NCBI GenBank assembly: GCA_965224815.1
Contig: CBDDAF010000002.1
Coordinates: forward strand, 93,751-117,750
Length of the DNA stretch: 24,000 nucleotides
Source of the DNA: Gammaproteobacteria bacterium
GTDB lineage: Bacteria > Pseudomonadota > Gammaproteobacteria > DSM-19610
Direction of reading: 5' to 3'
Shown: in pieces, positions 1 to 22,198 of the stretch
Layout: each line of letters opens with the position of its first letter
Numbering within the stretch: position 1 is the stretch's first letter
Program-made: the position numbers and the translations under genes
Notes under the pieces: model-generated
Databases searched by the model: none
Told to the model about the DNA's origin: nothing
The model's input: only the letters and a program-made list of their open reading frames with translations

Positions 1-59
1 CAGCTTTGAAGGATTGATTGCTGACCTGCAGAATATAAATTTGTAACTTTAGGGCCAGG

Positions 60-857
60 TTAATCGTCATTGCGACCGTAAAATATTTCATTCATTTCAC
101 GCTCAACGCGCTGGCTGATTTTTACAATATCGGCAGTCGCCAGATCTTCCAGTTTTATCCCAAAAAGATAATCATCCAGTACAAATTCATTCAGCCGCAT
201 TTTGGTGTGAAAGATTTTTTCCTGATAAACATTCACATCGAGCATCTGGTAACGCTCACGGGTATCCTGCGAGAGAAAGTTCTGAATCGAATTGATCTTA
301 TGGTCGATAAAATGCTTTTTACCCTGCTCATCGCGGGTAAATCCACGCACCCGATAATCCATGATGACAATATCGGATTCAAAGCTGTGGATCAGATAAT
401 TCAGTGCTTTCAATGGCGAAATAACACCACAGGTCGATACATCAATATCAACACGAAAAGTACTGATACCACCATCCGGGTGAATTTCGGGATAGGTATG
501 CACCGTGACATGGCTTTTATCGAGATGCCCAACCACAGCATCGGGTAATGGACCAGGCCTGGCGCTGTTACCCGATGCGTTGGGTAGAATCGAATCTTCA
601 GCGATCAGCATGGTGACACTCGCACCTTGCGGCTCATAATCCTGGCGGGCAATGTTAAGAATGTTCGCACCAATAATCTCGCAAACATCTTTCAATATGT
701 GTGTCAGACGTTCCGCATTGTATTCTTCGTCAATATATTCAATATACTTCTGTTCGTGCTCAACTTCGGCATAACAAATATCATAAATATTGAAACTCAG
801 AGTTTTGGTCAGATTATTAAAACCCTGTAGCTTGATATTTTGCGGTATTACAGTCAT
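60..857 (-). CDS. speD: S-adenosylmethionine decarboxylase proenzyme (pyruvoyl-dependent, enterobacterial SpeD type)
   Basis: 265-aa ORF. It is colinear with E. coli SpeD as I recall it, through [36 protein letters not shown] (self-processing Ser), [28 protein letters not shown] and [13 protein letters not shown]. The ATG at 855-857 lies 6 nt after the upstream gene stop, which suggests translational coupling. Confidence 0.95.
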
Positions 858-863
858 GTCAGT

Positions 864-1256
864 TCAGGCAATCGGTGGATGATAAATCATTTGCACAATA
901 ACGCCCTCGGGATCACTGCAGTAAAAACTGCGCGCGCCATCACGATGCGATCTCGCTGTACTTTTCATTTCGACATCGTTCGCCAACAAGTATTCATACC
1001 ATTCATCCACCAGCTCCGGTGTGCTGAGAATAAAGCCGATATGGTCAAGACGTTGCGGTGTGCCCACACAATCTTCCTGCTCTGTTTTGTGTAACGCCAG
1101 ATTATCATTGCCTGAGGTCAGGTAGACATTCTCTGCATCCGGCCGCCATTCAACCTGCATTCCCAGTAAGTCAACATAAAAGGCTTCTGCACGTTTAAGA
1201 TCGCGGACATTCAGCGCCACGTGGCGCATTCCCGCTGTCGCTGCCGGTTTTTTCAC
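864..1256 (-). CDS. VOC (glyoxalase / bleomycin-resistance / dioxygenase) family protein
   Basis: 130-aa ORF with a VOC-like N-terminal beta-alpha-beta-beta-beta signature (MRHVALNVRDLKRAEAFYVDLLGM ... LDHIGF). The GTG start at 1254-1256 is preceded by GAGGAA inside the end of the upstream gene. An alternative ATG lies at 1227-1229. It is packed tightly between yhfA-like and speD, consistent with one operon. Confidence 0.75.
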   Translation of the reverse strand: MKKPAATAGMRHVALNVRDLKRAEAFYVDLLGMQVEWRPDAENVYLTSGNDNLALHKTEQEDCVGTPQRLDHIGFILSTPELVDEWYEYLLANDVEMKSTARSHRDGARSFYCSDPEGVIVQMIYHPPIA

Positions 1257-1259
1257 AGT

Positions 1260-1676
1260 TTATTCCTCGATAATTTCATAATCGTGTGTCACATCGGCTA
1301 CCTTGCCGAGCATGATAGACGCTGAACAATATTTTTCAGCCGATAATTGAACAGCCCGTGCGACGTGCTTTTCGGCAATTCCATTACCCTTAACCACAAA
1401 ATGCACGTGTATTTTAGTGAAAATTTTCGGGTCTGTCTCGGCCCTTTCGGCTTCTATTTCAACATAACAATCCGTTACCGACTGGCGCGATTTCTCCAAA
1501 ATCATCATGACATCAAACGCCGTACAGCCACCCAGCCCCAACAGCAGCATTTCCATTGGCCGTACGCCGAGATTACGACCACCGTGCTCTGGTGGTCCAT
1601 CCATTACCACGGCATGACCACTGCCTGTTTCTCCAAGAAATGTCTTGTCCTGCACCCATTTAACCCGTGCTTTCAT
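1260..1676 (-). CDS. yhfA: OsmC/Ohr-superfamily protein, YhfA-like
   Basis: From the internal Met the protein reads MKARVKWVQDKTFLGETGSGH...PMEMLLLGLGGCTAFDV...LSAEKYCSASIMLGK. This parallels E. coli YhfA (MQARVKWVEGLTFLGES...SAEKYCSV). The start is moved from the track value 1715 to the ATG at 1674-1676 because a GGAGG lies 7 nt upstream. It is divergent from and adjacent to crp, as in E. coli. Confidence 0.85.
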   Translation of the reverse strand: MKARVKWVQDKTFLGETGSGHAVVMDGPPEHGGRNLGVRPMEMLLLGLGGCTAFDVMMILEKSRQSVTDCYVEIEAERAETDPKIFTKIHVHFVVKGNGIAEKHVARAVQLSAEKYCSASIMLGKVADVTHDYEIIEE

Positions 1677-1817
1677 AAAATAGCCTCCAGAATATTGCTT
1701 CAAAGATGTCCGCACACAGTGGAATGACTCTCTGCTGATTTTAGATTCAGCCAGATTGTCCGTTATTACAACCTATAAAGCGTCATCACATTTGGCCAGC
1801 GAAGGTACTTCTAAATT
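1677..1817. promoter_or_regulatory. Divergent intergenic control region between yhfA-like operon and crp
   Basis: 141-nt non-coding gap between divergent genes. For crp there is a candidate sigma70 pair TTAGAT (1741-1746) and TATTAC (1764-1769) with 17-nt spacing. A GAAGG Shine-Dalgarno lies at 1801-1805, 12 nt before the ATG. A TCACATTT CRP half-site lies at 1786-1793. These are motif matches by eye only. Confidence 0.35.
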
Positions 1818-2465
1818 ATGTTAAACACAATAGCCAGACCCGGCACCGAACAGAAAAAATCCTCCATCGACAGATTTCTGGAGCATTGCCATCGACGCCG
1901 TTATCCGTCAAAAAGTGTGATTATTTATGAAGGTGACCAGCCGGATGTGCTGTATTATATTGTCAGTGGCTCAGTTTCGGTACTCATGGAAGATAATGAG
2001 GGTAAGGAAATTGTCCTTGCCTACCTCAATAAAGGTGACTTTTTTGGCGAGCTGGGCCTGTTTGACGAAGAAATCAATCGCAGCGCCTGGGTACGCACAC
2101 GTACCGAATGTGAGCTGGCAGAAATCAGTTACAACCGCTACCGGCAGATCGCTGAGAAAAACCCAGATATCCTGTTTGCACTGGCTTCACAAATGGCCGG
2201 TCGCCTGCGTAACACAAGCCGCAAAGTGGGTAACCTGGCTTTTCTGGATGTCACTGGTCGCATCGCTGCCACCTTGCTGGATCTGTGTAAGCAACCGGAT
2301 GCCATGACCCATCCTGACGGCATGCAAATCAGGGTAACTCGTCAGGAACTCGGCCGGATAGTCGGTTGCTCTCGGGAAATGGCTGGGCGCGTACTGAAGT
2401 CGCTGGTTGAACAGGGACTGCTTACGGCTAAAGGGAAAACCATAGTGGTGTTTGGGACGCGTTAA
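1818..2465 (+). CDS. crp: cAMP receptor protein, Crp/Vfr global transcription regulator
   Basis: 215-aa ORF that is very close to E. coli Crp over its whole length. Shared stretches include [33 protein letters not shown] (cAMP pocket), [49 protein letters not shown] (HTH) and [10 protein letters not shown]. Confidence 0.96.
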
Positions 2466-2490
2466 TCCCGGTAACCCAGAATTAATTCTA

Positions 2491-2530
2491 GGTGCAGATG
2501 CAAGTTCAGAATTATCCTGCATGCTCCACC
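2491..2530. terminator. Candidate bidirectional hairpin terminator between convergent crp and trpC
   Basis: An imperfect inverted repeat GGTGCAGATGCA ... TGCATGCTCCACC (about 11 pairs with one bulge) sits in the 64-nt gap between the two stop codons. There is no clear U-tract. Confidence 0.3.
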
Positions 2531-3324
2531 TACGAAAATAATTCATTTAACTTTTCGCCTGGCTCATCGGCACGCATAAATGCTTCTCCTACCAGGAAAG
2601 TATGTATTCCATTAGTACGCATTTTGTCCACATCTTCCCTGCTGTGAATACCACTCTCGGTTACCAGTAATCGATCAGCAGGGAAATCCTTTTTAAGCGT
2701 TAGCGTAGTATCCAGTGAGGTTTCAAAGGTTCGTAGGTTGCGATTATTGACGCCGATTAAACGTGCTGGTAATGCCAGCGCACGTGCCATTTCTTCGGTA
2801 TCATGCACTTCAACAAGGGCATCCATACCCAGCTCATGGGTAATCCCTAACAGCTCCTGCAATTGTTGATCTGTCAACGCTGCAACAATCAACAAAATAC
2901 AATCAGCGTTTAATGATCTGGCTTCATAAATCTGCCAGGGATCGATGGTAAAATCCTTTCTCAATACTGGTAGAGAAACCGCCGAGCGCGCCTGTTGCAG
3001 ATAGGCATCACTACCCTGAAAGAAATCTATATCGGTCAACACAGATAGACAGGTAGCACCACCACGTTGATAACTTGCTGCAATCACCGCCGGTTCAAAG
3101 TCTTCACGAATCACACCTTTGCTCGGTGATGCCTTCTTAATTTCAGCAATAACCGCCGCCTGATTTGTGGCGACCTGTTGTTGCAGAGCATAGATAAAAC
3201 CTCTCGTCTTATCAGCATTACCCGCTTGTTGCCGGATAGCCTGCAAGTTCACACGCGCACGCCGTTCAGCAACTTCTTCCTGCTTGCGCGTCAGGATTTT
3301 CTTTAAAATATCGGAATTCGTCAT
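2530..3324 (-). CDS. trpC: Indole-3-glycerol-phosphate synthase (monofunctional)
   Basis: 264-aa ORF with IGPS hallmarks: [52 protein letters not shown] and FLVGEA. Confidence 0.93.
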
Positions 3325-3396
3325 AATTTTATATTGAACAGTCTGTTAGTAATTTTTTTGGGCAAGGTAGCGGATCCACATAATATGAGCAGCAGT

Positions 3397-3430
3397 GTAG
3401 GTTGGGCTTCGTACCTCAGCCACAACCTAC
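3397..3430. repeat. REP-like intergenic palindrome between trpD and trpC
   Basis: GTAGGTTGGGC-ttcgtacctca-GCCaCAACCTAC forms an 11-bp stem with one bulge in the 134-nt trpD-trpC spacer. It resembles the GTAGGTTGGG...CCCAACCTAC type of extragenic palindromes seen in several gammaproteobacteria (from memory). Confidence 0.45.
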
Positions 3431-3458
3431 CCAAGAGCTTTTTACTGGATCATCTCTG

Positions 3459-3743
3459 TCATGTGTTCCGGGGAAAAACAATGAGTTGCTGGAACACCGC
3501 TTTTGCCTGACCATCTGCGATCACTTCGGCTGCTCTGGTAATACCGGCTTCCAGTGTTTCTGTCAGGCCCGCAACATAAATCGCTGCACCAGCATTCAGC
3601 ACCACGATATCCAGTGCCGAGCCGGATTCGTTATTGAGAACAGCATTAATCATAGCCAGGCTTTGCTGCGCATTTTCAACAGATAGCCCGGATAGTCGGG
3701 TGCGCTGCAGACCAAACTGTTCTGGGGTTATACTGTAGACAGG
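3459..3743 (-). pseudogene. trpD: 3-prime fragment of anthranilate phosphoribosyltransferase gene (last ~95 codons only)
   Basis: The minus-strand frame reads ...PVYSITPEQFGLQRTRLSGLSVENAQQSLAMINAVLNNESGSALDIVVLNAGAAIYVAGLTETLEAGITRAAEVIADGQA..., a typical TrpD C-terminus. The frame is open upstream of the track Met. It hits an in-frame TAA at 3753-3755, and homology is lost beyond about 3,741. The N-terminal ~250 codons are absent. Confidence 0.85.
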
Positions 3744-3755
3744 GAAATGATTTTA
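3741..3755. other. Breakpoint between bacterial and eukaryote-like sequence
   Basis: The last interpretable TrpD codons (VYSIT) are at 3726-3740. Downstream the coding frame dies, and composition and feature content change to AT-rich repeats and retroelements. Confidence 0.8.
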
Positions 3756-3956
3756 TTATTACTATAATTAATGGAAATTAGTTTTAGCAATAAACGTCTA
3801 TTCATAATTGCCTCCCATCCCGCCTCGTTCATGCATGTGCCACGCGATTATCCCCAGACGGTCAAGGTCGCTGCCGAGTCTCGGAAAAATGTAGAAAAAA
3901 CAAGGATGCGAGCACGCAACCAAATTTAGGCATATGACTACGTTTTTAAGACGCGG

Positions 3957-4497
3957 TAGTCGGGTTGCCAGCCAATGCAAAACATAGACGAACCTGGAAA
4001 TCGGGTACATACGAAATGTTTTGAGCGTTTCTGGTACGTTGAAGTATGCTGATTCAGGAACTGCATGATGCCACTCTGGAAACATTGAGCACTTTTTTTT
4101 AGAACCATTTAAAAATCACCCCTGTCAGCCAAAACATTATTGCACTGTTTACGCGTATTGCGCGGTGTCGCTACTAGTTATCGCATTCAAACAGAACGCC
4201 CGCGCCTGCGAGCATTTGCTATTTCTGTAAAACCATGCACATTATTTCATTTCTTTGTTATACACAAATAATATATAATACGAACACTTACTTGTGAATA
4301 TATATAATGTTCGTATTCCCATAATTACAGTTATTATAACAGATTTTCGGTGTGTGCGTAAATCACATGCCGTCACGCTGTCTATGTATTGCTATCATTT
4401 TGTATCGATAGGAGCATCAGGGAAAACATGTTTAATAATAGGTAATAATTTAAATATCAAATAATCGTGATAAGATTTCAGCAGGTTAGGTAGCAAA
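3957..4497 (+). repeat. Long inverted repeat, left arm
   Basis: The reverse complement of 6523-7051 aligns by eye nearly base for base. One example is aacctggaaatcgggtacatacgaaatgttttgagcgtttctggtac against rc of 6940-7027. Others are the cgcattcaaacagaacgcccgcg and ataatacgaacac blocks. Mismatches and small indels are scattered. Weaker similarity may continue outward to about 3,830. Confidence 0.85.
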
Positions 4498-5729
4498 ACA
4501 ACTTCTATCGTGCACCAGCGTTCTCTCAGCTATGCTTAATCGCGTAAATGTAGAGCTACACTGTACACAAGTCAGCAAGACAGAGTCAAAGTGTATATTT
4601 CCAAACTGTCGACAAAACAAATGTCTTAGTATCGCAGGTACCCTGAGTACTGTACAACAACGATTATAGCTGCCAGTAAATTGCATGGAGGTAACATTCC
4701 CATAGCCTTGGACAATGAGCTGCTCTTCTTCTCCATCGAGTCCTCGATAGTTACTATTAGATAGATTCCTCCCAGTGTTTGGCACAGTTGAAACCGGTAA
4801 GGTTTGGCATAGCCAGGTCTGTCCATGTGCAATTGGGGGCATCACCACATGTCATAACATGACACATGTAGAGTGCCTACACTGTACACAAGTGCTTAAA
4901 CATTCAAACTGGACCATGTTATAGGAACTAATGTGGCGACCCGTAAACACATCAGCAGAGCAATAATCAGGCATGGTTGCAATGCAGTCTGCCAGCAGTT
5001 CCCACAAAATCGTCCATTCACAAGTGATCACAATAAAGACATTGAATGAAGATACACAAATACGGAGGGTCTGCGTTTATGACATGGATAGGGGTCTCAA
5101 CCTTACGGCAGACTACTTTTAATTTCTCAGAAGGAATGTGACTCCCCCGATTGGCCCTGCCTCGATACACTTCTGTTATTCAAGCTGACGCCACTTCCTC
5201 CAGATCTATTCGACTGTTACGGGTGCCTGAGGAAAATACATAGGCACCACTACCACATAAACCGGGCAACTGGAACGAGAAGAACAGGGAACCTGTCGTC
5301 GTCATCGTCCATGGAAGCGAGAAGCAATAGGACTTCCGACAGATTCGGCATAACTTCATAAGGACAATGAAGAACCGCACGTGTAGGAATATTCGATGGA
5401 TATGACGAATGATCTATCAAAACGAGCCAGGAGAGGAGCAGCAGCGATGTGTCACACGATCAAGCTGACTATTGAAACGAATCTGCCTACATGGATACAA
5501 TCATGAAATTACCTACAACAAATAGAACCTGATCAACATTGTCATCAGCAAAGAAAATGACTCACGTATATATATACAATGCAAATGCAGTGGGGAGGAA
5601 ACAGTGTTGGGCCTACATGTAAACATGGTTGCCACATCAACGGCTTGATCAAATCTTCCATCGACCAAGACGATGAACACATCAATGTTGTAGCCGATGA
5701 CACGGGTATATTCGCGTTGTGATACAGTC

Positions 5730-6400
5730 GGCTGTTCGGCAAATGGAAAACATCTGTGTCAACAATGATCACATGGTGAGTCATTCCCTCCCTGACACTC
5801 CATTCTCTTTTATATCACCACTCGCTCTATCCAACCATCCTATCTTAGGCCTTCCTCTCTTCCGTACATTTCCATCGTCATTCTACCTATGCAGTGCTCT
5901 TCTCTTCTCACCATATGCCCGTACCAGTTCCGCATCCTATATTGGATTTCCATTGCGATTTCTCCCACTTTCGGTTCTTCGATCCAGTATCTTTCATTCG
6001 TTATCCTGTCGACCTTTGTAACTTCCCATATCCATCATAGCAATTTCTTTTATTGTGCCTTCTGCAATGTCCCTGCTCCGATCTTACCACTGTCATGTAC
6101 AGCTTCCTCTAGGGTCTATACGTTCATTTTCTGTCACTCAACACTACACAGATTCTCTTCCAGTTCTTCTAACCGTTCTGCACGCTGAGGGGGACTTCTG
6201 TATCCAGTTCTCCATCTTCCTCTAACGTCGGTCCCAGATGCTTATTTGAATGCGTTCACTCTCTCTACTGTCTCTTCCTGTAAATGGATACGCCCAAGGA
6301 AAATCTACCTGCCTCCAACCGATCTCGCAACATACCAGTACTTGCGTCCTATGGAAGCCTTTGGCAACATTGAGCCTCCAACAATCACGGTGTAAGATTT
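5730..6400 (-). mobile_element. Decayed RTE-like non-LTR retrotransposon relic (RT C-terminal part)
   Basis: Minus-strand conceptual translation is broken by stops and frameshifts. It reads ETVERVNAFK / LGPTLEEDGELDTEV / RVQNG.KNWKRIS.VL.DRKMNV / TKVDRITNER / KVGEIA / NWYGHMVRREEH / GRPKIGWLDRASGDIKENGVSG. This follows the conserved tail of RTE-clade reverse transcriptases as I recall them. Confidence 0.65.
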
Positions 6401-6522
6401 ATGAGAACTAGAGAAAACCGTCGCATGTGTGTGCAATTATGCCATGCACGGAAGGCACGTTCAAGGCACGCAAGTTCCCATCAGGCTGTTGGCATTGCAT
6501 GTACGGCTATACAAATTACTCT

Positions 6523-7051
6523 ATTGCTACACAACCTGCTGATTATAACGATTATTTGATATCTAAATTGTGTGTTTAGTATTTTAAAAAAAATTCCCTG
6601 ATGCTCCTATCGTTATAAAATTATAGAAATACATACACAGCGTGACGGCATGTGATTTACGCACACACCAAAAATCTGTTATAATAACTGTAATTATGGG
6701 AATACGAACATTATATGCTTTTCACAAGTAAGTGTTCGTATTATATAATATTTGTGTATAACAAAGAAATGCAATAATGTGCATAGATTTACAGAAATAG
6801 CAAATGCTCGCAGACGCGGGCGTTCTGTTTGAATGCGATAATTAGTAGCGTAGCCGCGCAATACGCGTAAACAATGCAATAATGTTTTGGCTGACAGGGG
6901 TGATTTTAAAATGGTTCTAAAAAAAATTGCTCAATGTTTCCCGAGTGGCATCATGCAGTTCCTGAATCAGCATACTTCAAAGTACCAGAAACGCTCAAAA
7001 CATTTCGTATGTACTCGACTTCCAGGTATGCCCCCTGTGCCACCCGACTAC
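6523..7051 (-). repeat. Long inverted repeat, right arm
   Basis: This is the mirror copy of 3957-4497 (see left arm). The two arms are separated by about 2.0 kb that contains the RTE relic. Confidence 0.85.
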
Positions 7052-8204: not shown

Positions 8205-8261
8205 CGCCTACCTTCCTCGGGGCTCATCCGCCCGTAGACCTCACCACAGTTAATGCTGCAT

Positions 8262-9180
8262 AATGATAATAATAATGACATTATATTCTATAATACGGTG
8301 TTGCATGTGCGTGAGGGCGCGTGTGTGCGCGCGCTTACGGGTGCGCGTGCGTGTGTGCGTGCATGTGTGCGTGCGTGCGCGTATATATGCATGTATTATT
8401 TTTATATTATATTATTATATATGCGGGCGCAGTTTGTGCGTACGTGTGTGCGTACGTGTATGTATGGTCTACCTATACGTACATGCGAACGTATACATGC
8501 ATACGTGTGCGTGGGCGCATGTGCGTACGCGACTGCACGCGTGCAAGGGTGCGCATGTGTGCGTATGTGTGTGCGTAATCGTCTGCAGGTGTTTGCGCGT
8601 GTGGGCGCGTGCGAATGGGCGCTTGCGGGTGCGGGCACATTCGTGCGCGCGTGAGGCTGCGCAGTGTCTATGCATGCATGTGCGTGTGGGCAAGCATGCG
8701 TGTACACGCTGGCGTACATGCAGGTGTGCGTCCGTGTGTGTATATATGCATGTACAGTGTATAGTATCATTATATTATATTATTATTATATATGCGGGCT
8801 CAGTGTATCCGTACGTTTGTGGGTACGTGTGTGCGGACGTATATGTACGTACGTGCATGCGAGCGTATATGCGTACGTGTCTGCGGGCACATGAGTGTAT
8901 GCGTGCGCGTACGTGAGTGTGCGTGTGTGAGGGTGCGCATGTGTGTATTCGTGGTGAGGGTATGGACGTGTGTGCGCGTGGCGTGCGCTTGCGGGTGCAT
9001 GCACGTGCGTGCGCGTGTGAGGTTGCACATATGTATGCATGTGTCGTGCGCGTGTGGGTGCGCATGCGGGTGCGCTGGCGGGCTCGCGTACATGCGGATG
9101 TACGTGCGTGCGTGCGCGTATATGATTACTATATTATATTATTATATATGCGGGTGCAGTGTGTGCGTACCGTGTGTCAC
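8262..9180 (+). repeat. GT/GC-rich low-complexity satellite with ~360-bp higher-order period
   Basis: Long GTGCGTGC/GTGTGCGT-type tracts are punctuated by an AT-rich spacer ending in TATATATGCGGG(C/T)(G/T)CAGTGT. The spacers lie at about 8393-8440, 8761-8810 and 9121-9165, giving spacings of ~372 and ~356 bp. A partial unit lies at 8262-8392. There is strong strand asymmetry, with G+T on plus. Confidence 0.85.
8341..8396. other. 56-bp perfectly alternating purine-pyrimidine tract (Z-DNA-prone)
   Basis: gtgcgcgtgcgtgtgtgcgtgcatgtgtgcgtgcgtgcgcgtatatatgcatgtat alternates R-Y at every position, checked base by base. Confidence 0.9.
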
Positions 9181-10171
9181 CAGTTGCATTGTTTTAATAC
9201 GATTTTCACGGCGTGGGAGCAGCTACTGTCGATTGTAGAGATGGGCTACGTTGACGTCATATCCATGGAAATATTGCGAACATGTGGCGTAAATGCTTGG
9301 ATGTCTCTGGAAGGTAGTAACATATGAAGTCGATTGGCTTACCGGTATTCAGATATCGCTTGATAGTACGATTTAAAAAATTCTACTATGCGTGTATATG
9401 CCGAACGAGGATGTACATAATGATGATGGATTTATTGAGAATCATTATCTGTGTATAATTACGTCCCTTTCAATAATTGATGATATATGCGACACTATAA
9501 CTATCATATCAATGACGAAAGCCGTCTTTGGTAACCGACTTCAATTGTTCTGCAAGGAAAGTAATAGGAGTATCATTATCTAAAGTGAGAGATTTCTGCC
9601 GTGTGATTCATTTACGTAGTGAGTGAATACTTGAGCACACCATCGTGGTTAAACCATTGTTTATCCATAGACTCATATATTATAGAGGATGGACATAGTA
9701 TAATTCGTAATGTTTATATATGGCATTTTGGGTGTTCTTCGCATCACTTTCCCATATCTATTGACGTTGATATAGCATGTATGCCTGAGGTTGAGAACGT
9801 AAGAGGCAACGGGTCTAATAATTAGTCGTGGGTTGCCTCTCAGCTATCGTTCACGTCTTAGCACAGGTCTCTTTTGGATCGGTATTGAGTGGTATTGTTT
9901 AATTGCATACCATAACTAGTTGGAATTAATAAATTGTTCTACATGTCTGGTTGTCTGTCTATACATTAATGTTGATAATCACTCAATAGTGGGACATAGG
10001 CCTACACTGACAGCATGACAAACTATTATAGCAATACCATTTTAGAACAATTGAGGTCAATATTCTAATTATATTTAAAGAACCTTTGATTTGTAATCAC
10101 AAACTAAGTTCTAAGAAGCTTAGGCCTAGAGTGTCCACAAAAAACTAAGAATTTTGAGACCTCACCGTGTG

Positions 10172-10613: not shown

Positions 10614-11208
10614 GTAGGCCTAAGCCTAGTAGGCGGGCTGCATTGCAGGCGGGCTGGAGTGATCAACGGAACGAAGCGGAATCTGCGGAACAGACCGCCC
10701 GAATCTCAACTTTACCTGGTCACTGGTGTAACAAACCGCGTAATATTGGCTATGTGTTTCGCAACATAATGATACATGGCAAATAGTCCACTGAATATAC
10801 AATGAAACCTGTCCTACAATATTAATTCCTAAAAGTGAGATTAAGGTGCCCCCCCCCCCAGTAATCTTAATATCCCACGGAACGCCCAAAAATCAACAGG
10901 TTTCAGCAGCCAGTTAGTGCCAGCAGGCGAGCAACCATTCATTAGATGGAAATCTGTGGATTTTGCTAGTTCCACGGTGTTATGTGGCATATTAATATAC
11001 TCCGGTACCTTAATCTCATTTTTATTAATTAATATAATACGACAGGTTTCATTAGATGATCAGTGAACTAATTGCCGAGTATCAGTTTGGTTAAAAATCA
11101 CAGTGAGTATTGCACCATAATAGGTGAAGTTGTGATTCGGACAATCTGTTCTGCAGATTCTGCTTTGTTCCGTGGAATAGGCCCTACTCCAGCCCAGCCT
11201 AGGTCTAC
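10614..11208. mobile_element. Foldback / MITE-like inverted-repeat element, copy 1
   Basis: Arms at 10614-10850 and 11004-11208 are reverse complements with indels. One example is gggctggagt...ggaacgaagcggaatctgcggaacagaccgcccgaatctcaactttacct against rc ...ggaacaaagcagaatctgcagaacagattgtccgaatcacaacttcacct. Another is gagattaaggtgcc against ggtaccttaatctc. The loop is ~150 bp and starts with a C10 run. Confidence 0.65.
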
Positions 11209-11534: not shown

Positions 11535-11625
<91 letters not shown>

Positions 11626-11780: not shown

Positions 11781-12230
11781 CATACCATGACATGATTGTG
11801 ACATAAACTTTCACATGTAAATTCATCAATCATATTTATCTTTATCATAATTCATTCAACATCATAGCATCACATGATATAAACTTTCTCATGTAAATGC
11901 AATAAATCACATGATTAAATATCACAATTAATTCATCATCATAGCATCACATGATTGTAACACAAAAAAAGTTCAGTTGTAAATTCAGTATGATTAAATA
12001 TCACAATTAATTAATCTTCATAGCATCACATGATTGTAACACAAAAAAACGTTCAGTTGTAAATGCATTAATCACATGATTAAATATCACAATTAATTCA
12101 TCATCATGTAGCATCACATGATTGTGACACAAAAACGTTCAGTTGTAAATGCAGTATGATTAAATATCACAATTAATTAATCTTCATAGCATCACATGAT
12201 TGTAACACAAAAAACGTTCACTTGTAAAAG
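11781..12230 (+). repeat. AT-rich tandem repeat, 77-88-bp unit, about 5.5 copies
   Basis: The anchor ATAGCATCACATGAT(T/A) recurs at 11864, 11941, 12020, ~12108 and 12186, with a diverged first unit at ~11781. The unit body is ...tgtaacacaaaaaaacgttcagttgtaaatgca(g/t)ta(..)tgattaaatatcacaattaatt.... Confidence 0.85.
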
Positions 12231-12397: not shown

Positions 12398-12780
12398 AAT
12401 TAGGATCAAATATTCATAGTTCATACATGTATGCACAAAGATACATATGCCTCAACCAATATCAGTGCTATAATAACAAGATCTACACAAAGCCATCTTA
12501 TCATCTAACTAAAAAGTAAACTAATTATCAACTAAATAAAGTACAGATAATAATTAGTGAGTGTAATTAGCATCGAATAATCATGTCTTGTACAAACAAA
12601 AATGTGTATAAATCAATTAATATTAGTGCTTGCAACGAGTTTTACAGAAAGCCAGCTTATCATCTAACTAAATAAATAAACAAATCATCAACTATATAAC
12701 GAACAGAAAATAATTAATTAGTGTAATTAGTATCGAATAATCATATCTTGTACGCACAAAACGCGTATAAATCAACCATG
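12398..12780 (+). repeat. AT-rich tandem repeat, ~162-bp unit, about 2.3 copies
   Basis: gtaattag(g/c/t)atc(a/g)aata(a)tcat..., ...cagaaagccagcttatcatctaactaaataaataaac... and ...ataattaattag recur at ~12398, ~12560 and ~12722. Confidence 0.75.
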
Positions 12781-13490: not shown

Positions 13491-15603
13491 TAATATAATA
13501 ATAATAATAAAAGTTTTATTGCAGACGCAGTACATGGTCCATATTAAAAAACAAGATTAAAAGTTATACAATTGAATCAACCAGCGTCTCCGAAGTGTAG
13601 ACAATAAATACACGTCACCATTCGCAACGTTACAAATAATATCATTGGACGACCGATTAATTCTGGTCATCAGACTGTAAATACATTTTCTAAACACTGC
13701 ACTGCCTGAGTTAACATTAGCTGCAGCGAACATACCGCTGGCACTGCAGCGCATTGGCAATCTATGCAGTATACGATAGCAGTTGTTATAAGATACTATA
13801 AACATATGGAAAGTAGACTTAGTACACTTCACCCATAGAGCACACATGTATATATTATTAAAAAATGTAGAGAACAATTTGTTTTTAACATCAGCAGAAC
13901 AAAAGTGAAAGCGCTGTCTAAGCATATTACTTCTCGCATACATTTGCCTCGCTTTAGCTTTCATATCAGATTCATCAGACAGATCATCACAGATGATATG
14001 ACCAAGGTAGGTATAATACGAAACAAAGTTTAGCTGATCGCTACCAATCACCATGGGCCTAGCAGCTCCAAGTTTACGAGAGTCAATATACATAACCACC
14101 GATTTCAACGGGTTGAATTGGATGTCATGACTACATCCGTAAGTAAAACACATATCCAGCAACTTTTGCAGGCCCTTCGCAGAAGGTGAAAATAGTGCAA
14201 TGTCATCAGCATATAACATATGGTTTACAACAACGTCACCAGTGCTACAGCCGATATGTTGTGAATTGAGTTGTGCGCTAAGATTGTCCATGTAGACATT
14301 AAAAAAGAGCGGAGAGAGAATACCACCCTGTTTCACTCCATTCGTAGATGTAAAAAAATCCGAGTAGGAATTCCCCCACCGTATACATATATGTTGTGAA
14401 ATAAAATCGTAGCTAATCAGACGCAATATATATTTCGCCACTCCTCGATTTTCTAGCTTAGTTAAAAGCTTGCACCTATTGACGCGATCAAAGGCTTTAG
14501 AAGCATCTAAAAAAGCAACATGCATCGCTGAACCGTGTTCAACATAAAAACGCAGCAGTTCTTTGAAAGTAAATACACATAGCTCAGTTCCATGATCTAA
14601 TTTGAAGCCGAACTGATTGTGACTGCTATGCAGATAATCACTCAGACGACGAGCTAAAGCCATTTCAACGATCTTCGAACATACATTGGACAGACATATA
14701 GGTCGATAATTGCCTTTGTCATTTATGCGCTTGTTTTTGTTCTTAATTACCGGAACAATAACCGATTCCATCATAGACCTGGGGATAAAACCGTGAGTAA
14801 AGATAGACGATATCACCATAGACATAAGTACACATAGTTTAGGACCAGCAACCTGCATGTGTTCGGCAGATACACCATCCAGACCAGGAGATTTATTACA
14901 GGCAAGGCCATTAACTATAGTTTTCATTTCTTCAACATTGACATTAATTTCTTTGTCAAATACAATGTTAGTATTATTGAATATATCATCATGAGCTTTA
15001 GCGCAACAACTGTTCGGAACACTGTTGAATATAGTACTGTAATGGTGCTTCCACATAGCAGCGATATTACAGTCTCCATGGACGCCATCGATGCATGTGG
15101 GCAGTTTAACGTTACTGTTCATAGTACACCGAATTTCTTTCCAGAAATTGCGCTGATCAGTTTGGCACATTTTTTCGGCAATCCTATCAGATACAATAGT
15201 TTCTTTGTCCCTCTTACATTTTCGGAGAGCGTATTTAAAGCGACTTCTACACAATTTCATCAGGGTAAAGGCATCCCCATTCCTCGGCTTACCCAACTCA
15301 CGCCAAAGCCAATAAGCATCCATAGCAGCATCATGATGCTCTTTGACATACTCATTCCAGCCGGGAACACTGGCTTGTTTAATGTCACGATTATTAGGCG
15401 CAGTAAGTGGTTGGCTACATGCAGTTAGAGAACCCATAATAGAGTCATGGAATTCAGAAATTTCAGCCTGATGAATGCGACTTTTACAATTCGGATCTCG
15501 GCATCTGACTCCATCCGGAACTATTAACTGACTAAGTTCTATGTTAGTACATTTAGTATATTCATCCTCTTCAGGCTTGATGTTAAAGGAAGGAAATATA
15601 GGA
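13491..15603 (-). mobile_element. 5-prime-truncated non-LTR retrotransposon (LINE family A), RT-containing
   Basis: The RT ORF has no endonuclease domain. The reading frame stays open upstream of the first Met to ~15603, where the other LINE begins. The 3-prime UTR carries AATAAA followed by a (TTA)n run (plus 13494-13511). Confidence 0.8.
13557..15437 (-). CDS. Reverse transcriptase (non-LTR retrotransposon ORF2 fragment)
   Basis: 626 aa with NKSPGLDGV, NYRPICLSNVCSKI, FLDASKAFDRV, GVKQGGILSPLFFNVYMD, an intact MLYADDIALF catalytic box and NPLKS. The track Met is probably not a true start, since the frame is open another ~55 codons upstream. Confidence 0.85.
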   Translation of the reverse strand: MGSLTACSQPLTAPNNRDIKQASVPGWNEYVKEHHDAAMDAYWLWRELGKPRNGDAFTLMKLCRSRFKYALRKCKRDKETIVSDRIAEKMCQTDQRNFWKEIRCTMNSNVKLPTCIDGVHGDCNIAAMWKHHYSTIFNSVPNSCCAKAHDDIFNNTNIVFDKEINVNVEEMKTIVNGLACNKSPGLDGVSAEHMQVAGPKLCVLMSMVISSIFTHGFIPRSMMESVIVPVIKNKNKRINDKGNYRPICLSNVCSKIVEMALARRLSDYLHSSHNQFGFKLDHGTELCVFTFKELLRFYVEHGSAMHVAFLDASKAFDRVNRCKLLTKLENRGVAKYILRLISYDFISQHICIRWGNSYSDFFTSTNGVKQGGILSPLFFNVYMDNLSAQLNSQHIGCSTGDVVVNHMLYADDIALFSPSAKGLQKLLDMCFTYGCSHDIQFNPLKSVVMYIDSRKLGAARPMVIGSDQLNFVSYYTYLGHIICDDLSDESDMKAKARQMYARSNMLRQRFHFCSADVKNKLFSTFFNNIYMCALWVKCTKSTFHMFIVSYNNCYRILHRLPMRCSASGMFAAANVNSGSAVFRKCIYSLMTRINRSSNDIICNVANGDVYLLSTLRRRWLIQLYNF

Positions 15604-15708
15604 TTTTAAAAAGGAAACCTTAGGACATTTCCCCGGGGGAAATACCAGGTGAAAAAAAACAGTCTTTTTTAAGACTACCGACGAACGACTAGATTGATCG
15701 ACACGATC

Positions 15709-16929
15709 ATGGCACCAAGCAGGCATCTGGTCTGCGGAAACTGTAGCAGCTGGATACAGTTTGACAGCTCGGGGTGCACCATCTCCTGGGCCGAGATGAG
15801 GAAGAGCACTAGTGTGTTCACGTGCAAGGGGTGTACAGAGGTGGCGATGTTGGTGGGAGAAGTGGAAGATCTTAGGAAGATGATGGAAAGCCTGAAGAGG
15901 ATGGTCACGGGACAGGGACTGGAAGAAAAAAGAGGAGAAACAGGGGATCAAGAGGCATCACTGGAAGAAGCGGAGGAGAAGGAAAAGGAGAAGAGCGTAG
16001 GAGAGAAGACACGAGAAAACAGTTCCACAGATAACAAGGATGGGAAGAGAATACGTCCAGGAGCTCAGATGATAGCGACACACGACTACAAGAAGAACCC
16101 GGAGAGTCCAGTTGGAAATGAGCTGGATGTGAATGAAGGGGACACGCTAGTATACTTGATGACGAACGAGAACAACGAGCACTGGTGGCTCGCAGAGGAT
16201 GGTAAGGGACAGGTGGGCTATGTGCCAGCGACCTATCTGAAGATCATCAAAGATGTGACCCGCCAGGAAGAGGAAAGCGACACAGCCGGGAAAGAAGGGT
16301 ATGGAAAGAAGACAGATGGATCCAAGATTGGAGGGGATATGGGACAGGATGGAGAAAGAAGAAAGGCGTATTCAGCGGCAGTGATAGAGGGATTCAAGAG
16401 GAACTCGGCGATTTATGTGGGAGACTCCATAGTTAGGAAGACCGACTCACGATTGAACAAGGGAGAGGACGTAGTAGTGTGTTTACCGGGAGCAAGGATA
16501 GAGCATGTGACAGCGAGAGTAGAGAGGATCATGGGAAGAGGAAAGGGAGGGACCATACTGGTACACATCGGGACGAATAACGCGGATAAGGAAGGGACGA
16601 CAGCTATAGTGGATAAGTACAGCAAGCTACTCAAGAAGACGAAGGAAGCAAGGGTTGGACAAATCATCCTGTCAGGAATCCTACCAGTGTTTGGTAACAG
16701 GATAGATGGATACAGAAACTCGAAGCGGATGGCGATAAACGGGACGGTGAAGCGACTTTGTAAGGAGGAAGATGTGGGATACGTGGATCTGTGGGATAGC
16801 TTTGTGGGGAAAGAGGAGATGTACTTGAGGGACGGTCTGCACCTTAGTGGGAAGGTGGCTGCCGTTTTTGCCGAGGGACTCTCAGGGGCGGTTGCCAGTG
16901 GCTTGGGTAAAGTACGATATTTAAACTAG
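15709..16929 (+). CDS. LINE ORF1 protein: Cys-rich N-terminus + acidic/coiled region + SH3-like domain + SGNH/GDSL esterase domain
   Basis: The first ATG is at 15709; the track start at 15694 is TTG. CGNC...C...CKGC spans nt ~15733-15834. An SH3-like segment ATHDY...GDTLVYL...HWWLAEDGKGQVGYVPATYLKI spans nt ~16063-16248. Esterase blocks YVGDSIV, HIGTNNA and DGLHLS span nt ~16405-16893. Confidence 0.85.
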   Translation: MAPSRHLVCGNCSSWIQFDSSGCTISWAEMRKSTSVFTCKGCTEVAMLVGEVEDLRKMMESLKRMVTGQGLEEKRGETGDQEASLEEAEEKEKEKSVGEKTRENSSTDNKDGKRIRPGAQMIATHDYKKNPESPVGNELDVNEGDTLVYLMTNENNEHWWLAEDGKGQVGYVPATYLKIIKDVTRQEEESDTAGKEGYGKKTDGSKIGGDMGQDGERRKAYSAAVIEGFKRNSAIYVGDSIVRKTDSRLNKGEDVVVCLPGARIEHVTARVERIMGRGKGGTILVHIGTNNADKEGTTAIVDKYSKLLKKTKEARVGQIILSGILPVFGNRIDGYRNSKRMAINGTVKRLCKEEDVGYVDLWDSFVGKEEMYLRDGLHLSGKVAAVFAEGLSGAVASGLGKVRYLN

Positions 16930-16942
16930 TTGGGCAGGGGGG

Positions 16943-19738
16943 TTGTCAAAGAAGGCTCTAAACGTACAAGACGTTAGCAGATGCAAGGGAATACAGGGAA
17001 ACACATCCAAATCAGAAATTAAATGCGTGTGCTTAAACGCTAGGAGCATAATAAATAAGAAAACCGAACTAAACATTATGGTAGATGATATAAAACCTCA
17101 TATTATAGGTATAACTGAATCATGGGCAAACAATGACATAACAAATGCTGAATTGGGACTGGAAGGTTATGTAATGTTTAGGAAAGACAGAATAGGAAGA
17201 AGGGGAGGAGGAGTATTACTATACATCAAGGACACTATACCAGCATATGAAGTACAGTTACAAGAGGAAGCAGATTGTAATGAGGCCATATGGTGCAACT
17301 TAGTTACAGGACATACAGCAGTTATCATTGGAGTAGTATGTCGTTGTCCCAACATAACCAAACAGAACAACAACAAAATTCACAATGCTATAAATGAAGT
17401 GAGTAAAGGCGACTGTATTATAATGGGGGATTTTAACCATGGGAATATTAAATGGGATACATTACAGAGCACAGGGGTAGAAGACAGCACGTTTCTGTGC
17501 CTGGTACAGGACAATTTCCTAACTCAACATGTATTCGAACCAACCAGAGCAGCGAGAGTATTAGATATAGTGCTGTCCTCACAGAAAGAATTTGTCGACA
17601 ACGTTGAAATACAAGAACCATTGGGTAGCAGCGATCATAACCAACTGCATTTTAACATCAACATAAAATCAGACAAAACAAAAGTTAAACAATGTAGGAG
17701 GGATTTTAGGAAAGGTAACTATAGGGAAATTAGGAAAAATTTAGCACATATCGACTGGGGTGAGAAAATGAAAAACAAGACGGCAACAGAATGTTGGGAC
17801 ATTTTAAGAGGGGAGCTAGATACAGCTATTGATAGTTATGTTCCCATGAAAAAGCAAGGGAAACGCTCTAAGAAGAAACATCTGTCAAAAGAGGCTTTCA
17901 GAAAGATGCGATATAAACAAAATATGTGGCGGGTTTATAAACATACGGGAAAGGATAAAGATTATGAAGTTTACAAAGAAGCACTAAACGGTGCTACAAA
18001 CGAAGTTAGAAAGGCTAAGCGAAATTTTGAGCACAAATTAGCACAAAATATAAAATCAGACAGTAAGAGTTTCTACGCGTATGTAAGAAGTAAACAGAAT
18101 GTTCGAGATAAGGTTGGACCGCTGGAGGACAATGCTGGAAATATAATAACAGAGGGATGTTTAATGGCCGAGGAATTAAATGTGCACTTCAGTTCAGTGT
18201 TCACGAGGGAAGATACTAGTTCGTTACCTGTACCAGAAACAAATGTCAATGGATCAGAGGAGGAAAAGTTGGGGCAGTTAGTTGTAACCCCAGAAGTAGT
18301 AGCTAGCAAAATGAACAATATGAAAGAGAACAAGTCACCAGGAGTAGATGGTTTATCACCTAAAATACTGAAGGAAACTGTAGAACAAATTAGTAAGCCA
18401 CTTGCGCACGTGTTTAACATGTCACTGCAGGAGGGAATTGTACCCGTAGAATGGAAAGAAGCAAACATTATTCCTTTATTCAAAAAAGGTTCAAGAAACA
18501 AGTATGTAAACTATAGGCCAGTGAGTTTAACATCTGTAATTTGTAAATTACTAGAAACAATTATTAGGGATCATATGATGGACTTCCTCGTTAAACATAA
18601 ATTAATAAACACTTCTCAGCATGGGTTCCTAAAAGCAAGATCATGCCTAACAAATTTGTTATGTTTTTTGGAAGAAATAACTAAATGGGTGGATGATGGG
18701 TCACCGGTAGATGTTATCTATTTGGATTTCCAGAAAGCATTTGATAAAGTTCCACATCAAAGACTAATACTCAAGCTAAAATCACATGGTATGGGAAACA
18801 GTATAATCAATTGGATAGAGCAATGGCTAACTGACAGGAGACAAAGGGTAGTTGTTGACGGAGAGGTTTCTAGTTGGAAATCAGTCTTGAGTGGGGTGCC
18901 ACAAGGATCAGTACTAGGGCCTATTTTATTTCTGGTTTACATCAACGATTTAGAGGAAGGGGTAACAGGCAACATATTGAAATTTGCAGGTGACACTAAA
19001 TTATTTACAAAAACCAAGGAAATTGGAGACAAACAAAATTTACAAGATGACATTGATAAATTAGTCAAGTGGTCTGAAAAATGGCAGATGTTATTCAATT
19101 TTGGGAAATGCAAATGTCTACACATAGGACCGGGAAATACAAGCATGAACTATGAAATGGGAGGGACTATTTTAAGTACAACCGTGAAAAAAAAAGACTT
19201 AGGAGTAACAATGAATGCGAACATGAAAGTCTCAGAACAATGCAGAATTGCAGCGTCTAAGGCTAACCAGGTTCTTGGAATGATTCGCAGAAATATAACA
19301 TATAAAGACAAAAGTTTGATTGTACCTCTGTATAAAGCAATAGTTAGACCTCACTTAGAATATTGTATACAGGCATGGAGTCCATATCTAAGGAAAGACA
19401 TAGATATGCTTGAAAAAATACAGAGGAGAACAACTAAACTCATTCCAGGACTGAGAGATCTTAGATATGAAGAACGATTAAAGGAATGTGGACTGACAAC
19501 ACTAGAAACGCGAAGATTAGGGGGTGACCAAATCGAAGTGTTTAAAATATTGAATGGTTATGAAAATATTGATTCTAATATTTTTTTTGAAATTAAGGAA
19601 AGTAAAATAACTAGAGGACATAACTACACGCTGGTGAAGAAACAAAGTAGATTGGATGTTAGAAAATACTCATTTTCCCAGCGGACCATCAATGTATGGA
19701 ATAAATTATCAACTGATTGTGTAGACTCTACATGCTAG
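16943..19738 (+). CDS. LINE ORF2 protein: apurinic/apyrimidinic-type endonuclease + reverse transcriptase
   Basis: 931 aa. EN motifs are CLNARSI, GITESW, GDFNH and SDHNQL. RT motifs are NKSPGVDG, NYRPVSLTS, YLDFQKAFDKVPH, GVPQGSVLGPILFLVYIND and KFAGDTKLF (variant of FADD). The frame is open from 16925. The track start is TTG, and the first ATG in frame is at 17078, already inside the EN domain. Confidence 0.9.
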   Translation: MSKKALNVQDVSRCKGIQGNTSKSEIKCVCLNARSIINKKTELNIMVDDIKPHIIGITESWANNDITNAELGLEGYVMFRKDRIGRRGGGVLLYIKDTIPAYEVQLQEEADCNEAIWCNLVTGHTAVIIGVVCRCPNITKQNNNKIHNAINEVSKGDCIIMGDFNHGNIKWDTLQSTGVEDSTFLCLVQDNFLTQHVFEPTRAARVLDIVLSSQKEFVDNVEIQEPLGSSDHNQLHFNINIKSDKTKVKQCRRDFRKGNYREIRKNLAHIDWGEKMKNKTATECWDILRGELDTAIDSYVPMKKQGKRSKKKHLSKEAFRKMRYKQNMWRVYKHTGKDKDYEVYKEALNGATNEVRKAKRNFEHKLAQNIKSDSKSFYAYVRSKQNVRDKVGPLEDNAGNIITEGCLMAEELNVHFSSVFTREDTSSLPVPETNVNGSEEEKLGQLVVTPEVVASKMNNMKENKSPGVDGLSPKILKETVEQISKPLAHVFNMSLQEGIVPVEWKEANIIPLFKKGSRNKYVNYRPVSLTSVICKLLETIIRDHMMDFLVKHKLINTSQHGFLKARSCLTNLLCFLEEITKWVDDGSPVDVIYLDFQKAFDKVPHQRLILKLKSHGMGNSIINWIEQWLTDRRQRVVVDGEVSSWKSVLSGVPQGSVLGPILFLVYINDLEEGVTGNILKFAGDTKLFTKTKEIGDKQNLQDDIDKLVKWSEKWQMLFNFGKCKCLHIGPGNTSMNYEMGGTILSTTVKKKDLGVTMNANMKVSEQCRIAASKANQVLGMIRRNITYKDKSLIVPLYKAIVRPHLEYCIQAWSPYLRKDIDMLEKIQRRTTKLIPGLRDLRYEERLKECGLTTLETRRLGGDQIEVFKILNGYENIDSNIFFEIKESKITRGHNYTLVKKQSRLDVRKYSFSQRTINVWNKLSTDCVDSTC

Positions 19739-19929
19739 TAGTGTTAATATGTTCAAGAACAAAATTGATAAGTATCTAGCTAAGGCGGGCTATACATAGA
19801 ATAAGCGCAGGTTAAACTTAGAATAGTAAGAGTGGACTCTCGATAAGCTGTTAGCTTCCTTGTCTACTGCTATCTGAGGTGCTCCTTGGGTGGCAATCTT
19901 GTTAAATCTTGTTAAAAGAAACATCGCGC

Positions 19930-21817: not shown

Positions 21818-21982
21818 TCCTTCCCTTTCAATGAGTTACTGTTAATTACCGATCACTTCAATTATCTGAACAAAAAAATGGACTGCCGGCAATAAGTCAT
21901 TCGACTGAAAGTAAATAGTAGCATCCTCAATATGCATGAACTAACATTTAACTATTATGGCTCAAATTAAAAAGTCAGGCCA

Positions 21983-22198
21983 CACAACTGGATAGTCGGG
22001 GATTATTATGCCCTCTCGACTAATCGCGATATCTGGTAGGCATTTCGAATGCCGCACAACTGGATAGTCAGGGATTATTATGCCCTCTCGACTAATCGCG
22101 ATATCTGGTAGGCAGTTCGAATGCCGCACAACTGGATAGTCAGGGATTATTATGCCCTCTCGACTAATCGCGATATCTAGTAGGCAGCTTGATTGCTC
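21983..22198. repeat. 72-bp tandem repeat, 3 copies
   Basis: cacaactggatagtc(g/a)gggattattatgccctctcgactaatcgcgatatct(g/a)gtaggca(t/g)ttcgaatgccg starts at 21983, 22055 and 22127. The copies are near-identical. The third copy contains the integrase stop codon. Confidence 0.92.

Follow-up and report, generated by a model that had tools for sequence, protein, structure and literature searches.

An abrupt switch from gammaproteobacterial to repeat-rich eukaryotic DNA inside a trpD fragment, almost certainly an artefactual join

Insertions of Wolbachia DNA into the genomes of insects and nematodes were reportedly described by Dunning Hotopp and colleagues in 2007. Endosymbiont insertions that have been validated have spanning reads, PCR or FISH and inheritance to support them, come from a germline-resident donor, and usually show some divergence or decay. 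The DNA analysed here (the window, meaning the whole stretch of 24,000 nucleotides) resembles the Wolbachia insertions in that operon-scale bacterial DNA adjoins repeats of the host and the gene at the border is truncated. It differs from them in its zero divergence, where validated cases usually show divergence or decay.

Two further kinds of case are close to this locus. In the tardigrade Hypsibius dujardini, horizontal transfer was falsely called from a contaminated assembly (Koutsovoulos et al., bioRxiv 10.1101/033464; Delmont and Eren, PMC4824900). That case is like ours in having intact, undecayed bacterial genes in an animal assembly, from co-sequenced organisms; however, its bacterial scaffolds were mostly wholly bacterial, whereas here both genomes lie on one contig, so that a physical or graph join is needed as well. 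The second case concerns ligation-based long-read libraries, in which up to 3.17% of reads were chimeric in one benchmark (Tvedte et al. 2021, PMC8495745), whose authors caution that reads of this kind may be mistaken for lateral gene transfer (LGT) from bacteria to eukaryotes. Like the joint in the window, those reads are abrupt joins of unrelated, co-prepared genomes that carry no homology, adapter or integration signature, but here we have an assembled product and one intact parent only.

The features of the window are collected in Table 1.

Table 1. Features of the window, by position, with the basis of each assignment.
Feature	Positions	Strand	Basis or remark
speD-like S-adenosylmethionine decarboxylase gene, 265 aa, complete	60-857	-	Pfam PF02675 (AdoMet_dc), E 6.7e-14
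Glyoxalase/VOC-family gene, 130 aa, complete	864-1256	-	Pfam PF00903, E 3.8e-18
OsmC-family gene, bacterial	1260-1715	-	Pfam PF02566
crp/vfr-type cAMP receptor regulator gene, 215 aa, complete	1818-2465	+	PF00027 (cNMP_binding), PF13545 (HTH_Crp) and PF00325
trpC, indole-3-glycerol-phosphate synthase, 264 aa, complete	2530-3324	-	Pfam PF00218 (IGPS), E 9.7e-97
trpD 3' fragment: residues 247-339 of 339, one extra base and stop	3459-3741	-	Pfam PF00591
Non-repetitive host DNA, 216 bases, left target-site flank of TIR transposon	3742-3957		Ends in duplicated CGG
Transposon with terminal inverted repeats (TIRs), ~3.1 kb	3958-7049		Self-BLAST
(AT)42 run	11540-11623		Tandem Repeats Finder
79/166-bp satellite array	11843-12228		Tandem Repeats Finder
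160-bp repeat	12484-12775		Tandem Repeats Finder
5'-truncated LINE reverse-transcriptase (RT) ORF, 626 aa	13557-15437	-	Pfam PF00078
LINE, two ORFs	15694-19916	+	Pfam domains
LINE ORF1, SH3 and GDSL esterase	15694-16929	+	Pfam
LINE ORF2, endonuclease (EEP) and RT	16943-19738	+	Pfam
72-bp tandem repeat, 2.9 copies, 97% identical	21979-22187		Tandem Repeats Finder
Gypsy/LTR-type integrase ORF, 517 aa	22164-23717	-	Pfam PF17921 and PF00665

Contigs of the bacterium were located by an exact-product look-up with TrpC and by a scan of GTDB species representatives. In BLAST, window positions 1-3741 matched NCBI contig JAZHCG010891037.1 (49,441 bp, assembly GCA_044240345.1) and contig JAZGGH010000079.1 (43,481 bp, MAG SCS4bin.9, GCA_036480335.1) with 0 mismatches and 0 gaps in each case. 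Single mismatches (3740/3741) were found against ENA ERZ25083849 NODE_471 (47,540 bp, coverage 14.9) and against Logan SRR17063066_162991. All four contigs run past the break in the window for another 1.6-9.6 kb, and all four hold a complete 339-residue TrpD within trpE-trpG-trpD-trpC, surrounded only by bacterial genes. The bacterial part of the window is thus identical to an uninterrupted parent that continues beyond the break. Window position 1 itself falls mid-gene, in the HAD hydrolase of reference contig L001, and no second border between bacterial and host DNA is visible in the window.

All five complete bacterial ORFs are intact, as the preliminary description had stated, and all five are identical to those of the parent. 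The same 265-aa speD-like gene was called on four bacterial contigs, the 130-aa glyoxalase gene also occurs in reference contigs L001, L002 and L077, and the exact crp/vfr-type product is present on five bacterial contigs. The OsmC-family gene (138 aa by the gene call on the reference contigs) contains the sole strain SNP, at position 1632 (T in the window and the NCBI records, G in ENA and Logan). The window therefore carries one of two extant bacterial alleles.

The window TrpC is the exact product recorded as NCBI MEE9493397.1 ('MAG: TrpC [Gammaproteobacteria bacterium]'), and the next most similar TrpC among 185,579 GTDB species representatives was only 65% identical. Judged by sequence, the bacterium is an uncultured gammaproteobacterial lineage that is known only from the MAG 'Gammaproteobacteria bacterium SCS4bin.9'. 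The trpG-trpD-trpC / crp(vfr) gene neighbourhood is one that we take to be Pseudomonas-type; the reference contigs share it in having trpE-trpG-trpD-trpC and then a divergent crp-family gene, but the organism here belongs to an uncultured lineage with a TrpC at most 65% identical to that of other representatives. Public records of the bacterium number at least five, two of them from NCBI, one from ENA and two from Logan runs; its contigs differ by 0-1 SNP over 6-14 kb. This near-clonality across NCBI, ENA and Logan data suggests a lineage that is specific and associated with a host. A 122,930-bp contig with an identical TrpC is also listed in the protein index; it may be a longer contig of the bacterium or the very contig from which the window comes. 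As a separate matter, an enteric contaminant was ruled out as the identity of the bacterium, because megablast of positions 1-4200 against E. coli genomes gave no match.

The bacterial identity stops within trpD. The last base in common with the reference bacterial contigs in BLAST is 3741 and the first unrelated base is 3742. At the junction the window reads ...GTAGACA|GGGAAATGATT, and the bacterium reads ...GTAGACA|CTTACCTCGCC. Beyond 3741 the window continues as GGGAAATGATTTT..., and all four bacterial contigs continue as CTTACCTCGCCATC.... The bacterial sequence running up to 3741 ends ...CTGTAGACA, and the bases abutting 3741 are ...CTGTTCTGGGGTTATACTGTAGACA. With 3741 of 3741 bases identical and then zero similarity, the switch at 3741|3742 is far beyond chance.

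The junction is blunt. It contains no Ns, no adapter remnants of the PacBio, ONT, Illumina or Nextera type, and no repeat; the absence of an IS element or integrase at the joint had already been noted from the letters, and neither was present. Comparison of the bacterial continuation past the break with the host side gave zero similarity. The first three non-bacterial bases, GGG (3742-3744), are either host sequence or non-templated filler.

The trpD remnant was examined at the protein level. Its ORF (3459-3743, minus strand) spans profile positions 174-252 of 253 of PF00591 (Glycos_transf_3), which is the C-terminal third, and it matches the full TrpD of reference contig L001 from residue 247 on. 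The Glycos_trans_3N domain (PF02885) is missing from it; the full-length gene in the reference contig carries both domains. The window thus holds a remnant of trpD and not a working gene. The preliminary description had placed a switch from bacterial to repeat DNA inside trpD, and both the Pfam assignments of the ORFs and the end of BLAST identity at 3741 agree with this. Its approximate figures needed adjustment: the joint does lie inside trpD, but exactly at 3741|3742 rather than at about 3,740, and the truncation is real but leaves 93 codons rather than about 95. Minus-strand translation across the joint reads ...NHFP|VYSITPEQFG..., and it reproduced the reported VYSIT at 3726-3740 and the in-frame TAA at 3753-3755.

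On the other side of the joint, the 216 bases from 3742 to 3957 matched neither bacterial loci nor other host loci. They lead directly into a transposon whose TIRs of ~500 bp (3992-4496 and 6524-7027) are 91% identical to each other in self-BLAST. The transposon termini read TAGTCGGG..., and a 3-bp target-site duplication, CGG, is found on both sides. This duplication identifies 3742-3957 as genuine host target DNA; in being 3 bp long it resembles that of PIF/Harbinger-type elements. Pfam recognised no transposase ORF in the transposon, and the element is for this reason probably non-autonomous. A copy 90-95% identical lies on ENA ERZ25073254 ctg86856_44x_l (L075, 1749-5129) with the target-site duplication TAA, and a partial copy lies on an 817-bp NCBI contig, JAZHCG012937426.1 (L074, 40-419), of assembly GCA_044240345.1.

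The rest of the window is rich in repeats, LINEs among them. The LINE at 15694-19916 is 98.1% identical in nucleotides to ENA ERZ25073254 ctg84186_38x_l over 3909 bases, and its cluster has 3135 members. Copies of the RT ORF at 13557-15437 in ENA assemblies are 98-99% identical (a cluster of 251 members), and this ORF belongs to a young, high-copy family. For the two LINEs, just one named relative came up, a fish RT with 39% identity. Ten further host-side ORFs gave no match in Pfam and no host gene was seen among them. We interpret the DNA from 3742 onward as eukaryotic, and an animal source as plausible. The earlier list of LINE, SINE, Gypsy and satellite sequences stands for LINE, Gypsy and satellite; the SINE is unsupported, and an Rfam scan of the window matched no RNA family. 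CpG depletion was tried as a discriminator between host and bacterium and did not discriminate, with an observed/expected ratio of ~1 on both sides of the junction.

Host repeat families of the window are present in both ENA ERZ25073254 and NCBI GCA_044240345.1. The NCBI assembly holds the intact 49-kb bacterial contig as well as the host TIR transposon copy, so at least one preparation, the one behind GCA_044240345.1, yielded sequence of host and bacterium alike. The bacterium is thus an associate of the host, be it a symbiont, a gut or surface resident, or a tissue contaminant.

From these comparisons we conclude, with a probability of about 0.9, that the two parts of the window were joined artefactually, most probably through a chimeric long read or a misassembly. 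A 3.7-kb piece of a living, host-associated gammaproteobacterium would have been joined to genuine repeat-rich DNA of a eukaryote, probably an animal. In the mechanism that we propose, library preparation would have ligated the ends of two unrelated fragments, and the assembler would have taken the resulting chimeric long read into a host contig. The break in trpD would in that case be the mere end point of the bacterial fragment, and no biological event need have taken place at the site. An artefactual join is favoured over LGT because identical, free-standing bacterial contigs carry a complete trpD. The preliminary description had likewise ranked a chimera above recent LGT, had proposed a search of bacterial genomes for a full-length trpD, and had named, as evidence against LGT, a bacterial contig from the same sample that carries the identical sequence and an uncut trpD. 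A search of public collections gave that result in substance, as four independent records carry positions 1-3741 together with an intact trpD.

The age of the join bears on the same question. For positions 1-3741 the 95% upper bound on divergence from the living bacterium is ~0.08% (3/3741), against a difference of 1.9% between the neighbouring host LINE and its sister copy. Since the window carries an extant allele and the bacterial contigs differ among themselves by 0-1 SNP, the join postdates the present strain diversity of the bacterium.

A genuine and recent lateral transfer would be expected to look different in several respects. In that account, a fragment of the associate's genome was inserted into the host germline by non-homologous end joining (NHEJ), and the window shows the right-hand border. 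NHEJ yields blunt junctions that lack homology, and the blunt junction seen here fits such an origin. The sequence is also continuous, with neither Ns nor adapters, the host flank at 3742-3957 is real according to the target-site duplication of the transposon, and there was opportunity, as the bacterium is repeatedly found with host-derived data. Against this, zero substitutions in 3741 bases separate the window from the living bacterium, whose current allele it carries, and the bacterial part shows neither decay, host-specific changes nor a host transposon. The lack of a visible second border may also speak against insertion. The prior is low too, as contamination or chimeras turned out to explain most such claims (e.g. 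the tardigrade, bioRxiv 10.1101/033464). We therefore consider an insertion into the germline very improbable. It is just as hard to credit that a marine or otherwise host-associated gammaproteobacterium donated at least 3.7 kb, from speD to trpD, and was caught before any substitution had arisen.

Searches for the joint in other data point the same way. The preliminary description had suggested that the same joint might be sought in independent material. It was looked for and not recovered in a partial survey of JGI metagenomes, IMG/VR and retrievable contigs: a 34-mer across the junction was absent from JGI metagenomes and from IMG/VR, which counts against LGT, as does the finding that every retrievable contig reaching this point of trpD continues as bacterium. 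A 37-mer from the host flank was absent from JGI metagenomes. Exact-product look-ups returned no record of the truncated 64-aa TrpD, of the 95-aa ORF across the host flank, or of either version of the RT ORF (626 and 537 aa). An uninterrupted host allele was sought by homology, with the RT ORF, the ORF nearest the junction and ORF2 of the LINE as queries; these searches retrieved paralogous copies of the repeats and nothing else, with identities of no more than 99.2%.

A somatic or extrachromosomal joint would likewise predict a bacterial part that matches the living bacterium perfectly. Here bacterial DNA would have been ligated in some host cells, such as phagocytes or bacteriocytes, and would not be inherited through the germline. 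Integration of bacterial DNA in somatic cells has been claimed in human samples (PMC3688693). Molecules of this kind would, however, be a tiny fraction of the total and unlikely to be assembled, and from sequence they look the same as a chimera made in vitro; we regard this origin as exceedingly improbable.

Returning to the artefactual join, the type of assembly helps to separate a chimeric read from a misjoin in the assembly graph, the second possibility after a chimeric read. In the window, ~20 kb of young, high-copy repeats are assembled unbroken, whereas host contigs in the short-read-like NCBI assembly GCA_044240345.1 are 0.4-0.9 kb long, which suggests that the contig comes from a long-read assembly. 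A long-read assembly and a join with no shared sequence would together point to a chimeric read. It counts against this that modern long-read assemblers usually discard singleton chimeric reads.

In a graph misjoin, no chimeric molecule would have existed, and a short k-mer shared by chance between trpD and a host locus would have connected the two genomes. Bacterial and host DNA do occur in the same data set, and by simple arithmetic a Gb-scale and an Mb-scale genome would be expected to share chance k-mers at small k (e.g. 21). On the other hand, no sequence at the break is common to the bacterial continuation and the host side, and the host part, long and rich in repeats, suggests a long-read assembly, in which such short overlaps would probably not be used. 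A graph misjoin is thus possible but doubtful.

With either route the joint is, on the sequence comparisons above, almost certainly artefactual and not of biological origin. We recommend marking the contig as chimeric, splitting it at 3741|3742 and assigning its bacterial part to an SCS4bin.9-type gammaproteobacterium; no claim of gene transfer should rest on it. Were the joint real, it would offer a rare snapshot of bacterial DNA from a non-Wolbachia donor entering an animal genome before decay. A bacterium that is near-clonal across at least five public data sets and that travels with the DNA of this host is a lead for research on symbiosis, not on LGT.

Several smaller features were seen on the host side. 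Positions 8250-9330 form a GT/GC-rich block of low complexity, with imperfect 12-, 24- and 27-bp repeats, a GC skew that reaches +0.34 and, on each strand, numerous spurious ORFs that overlap. At 10663-11176, ~510 bp align to their own reverse complement with 66% identity, which we read as a degenerate palindrome or foldback.

Within the LINE at 15694-19916, ORF2 starts with TTG (16943-16945); the corresponding codon is ATG in P0001, the family representative, which is 96% identical. ORF2 is also 18 residues short at its end. Despite its 98% identity to other copies, this one is probably dead. The SH3 and GDSL parts of ORF1 were called as two genes in the sister copy L072, indicating a frameshift in that copy. 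Directly downstream of the Gypsy-type integrase ORF lies the 72-bp tandem repeat (21979-22187), which may be part of the 3' region or LTR of the Gypsy element.
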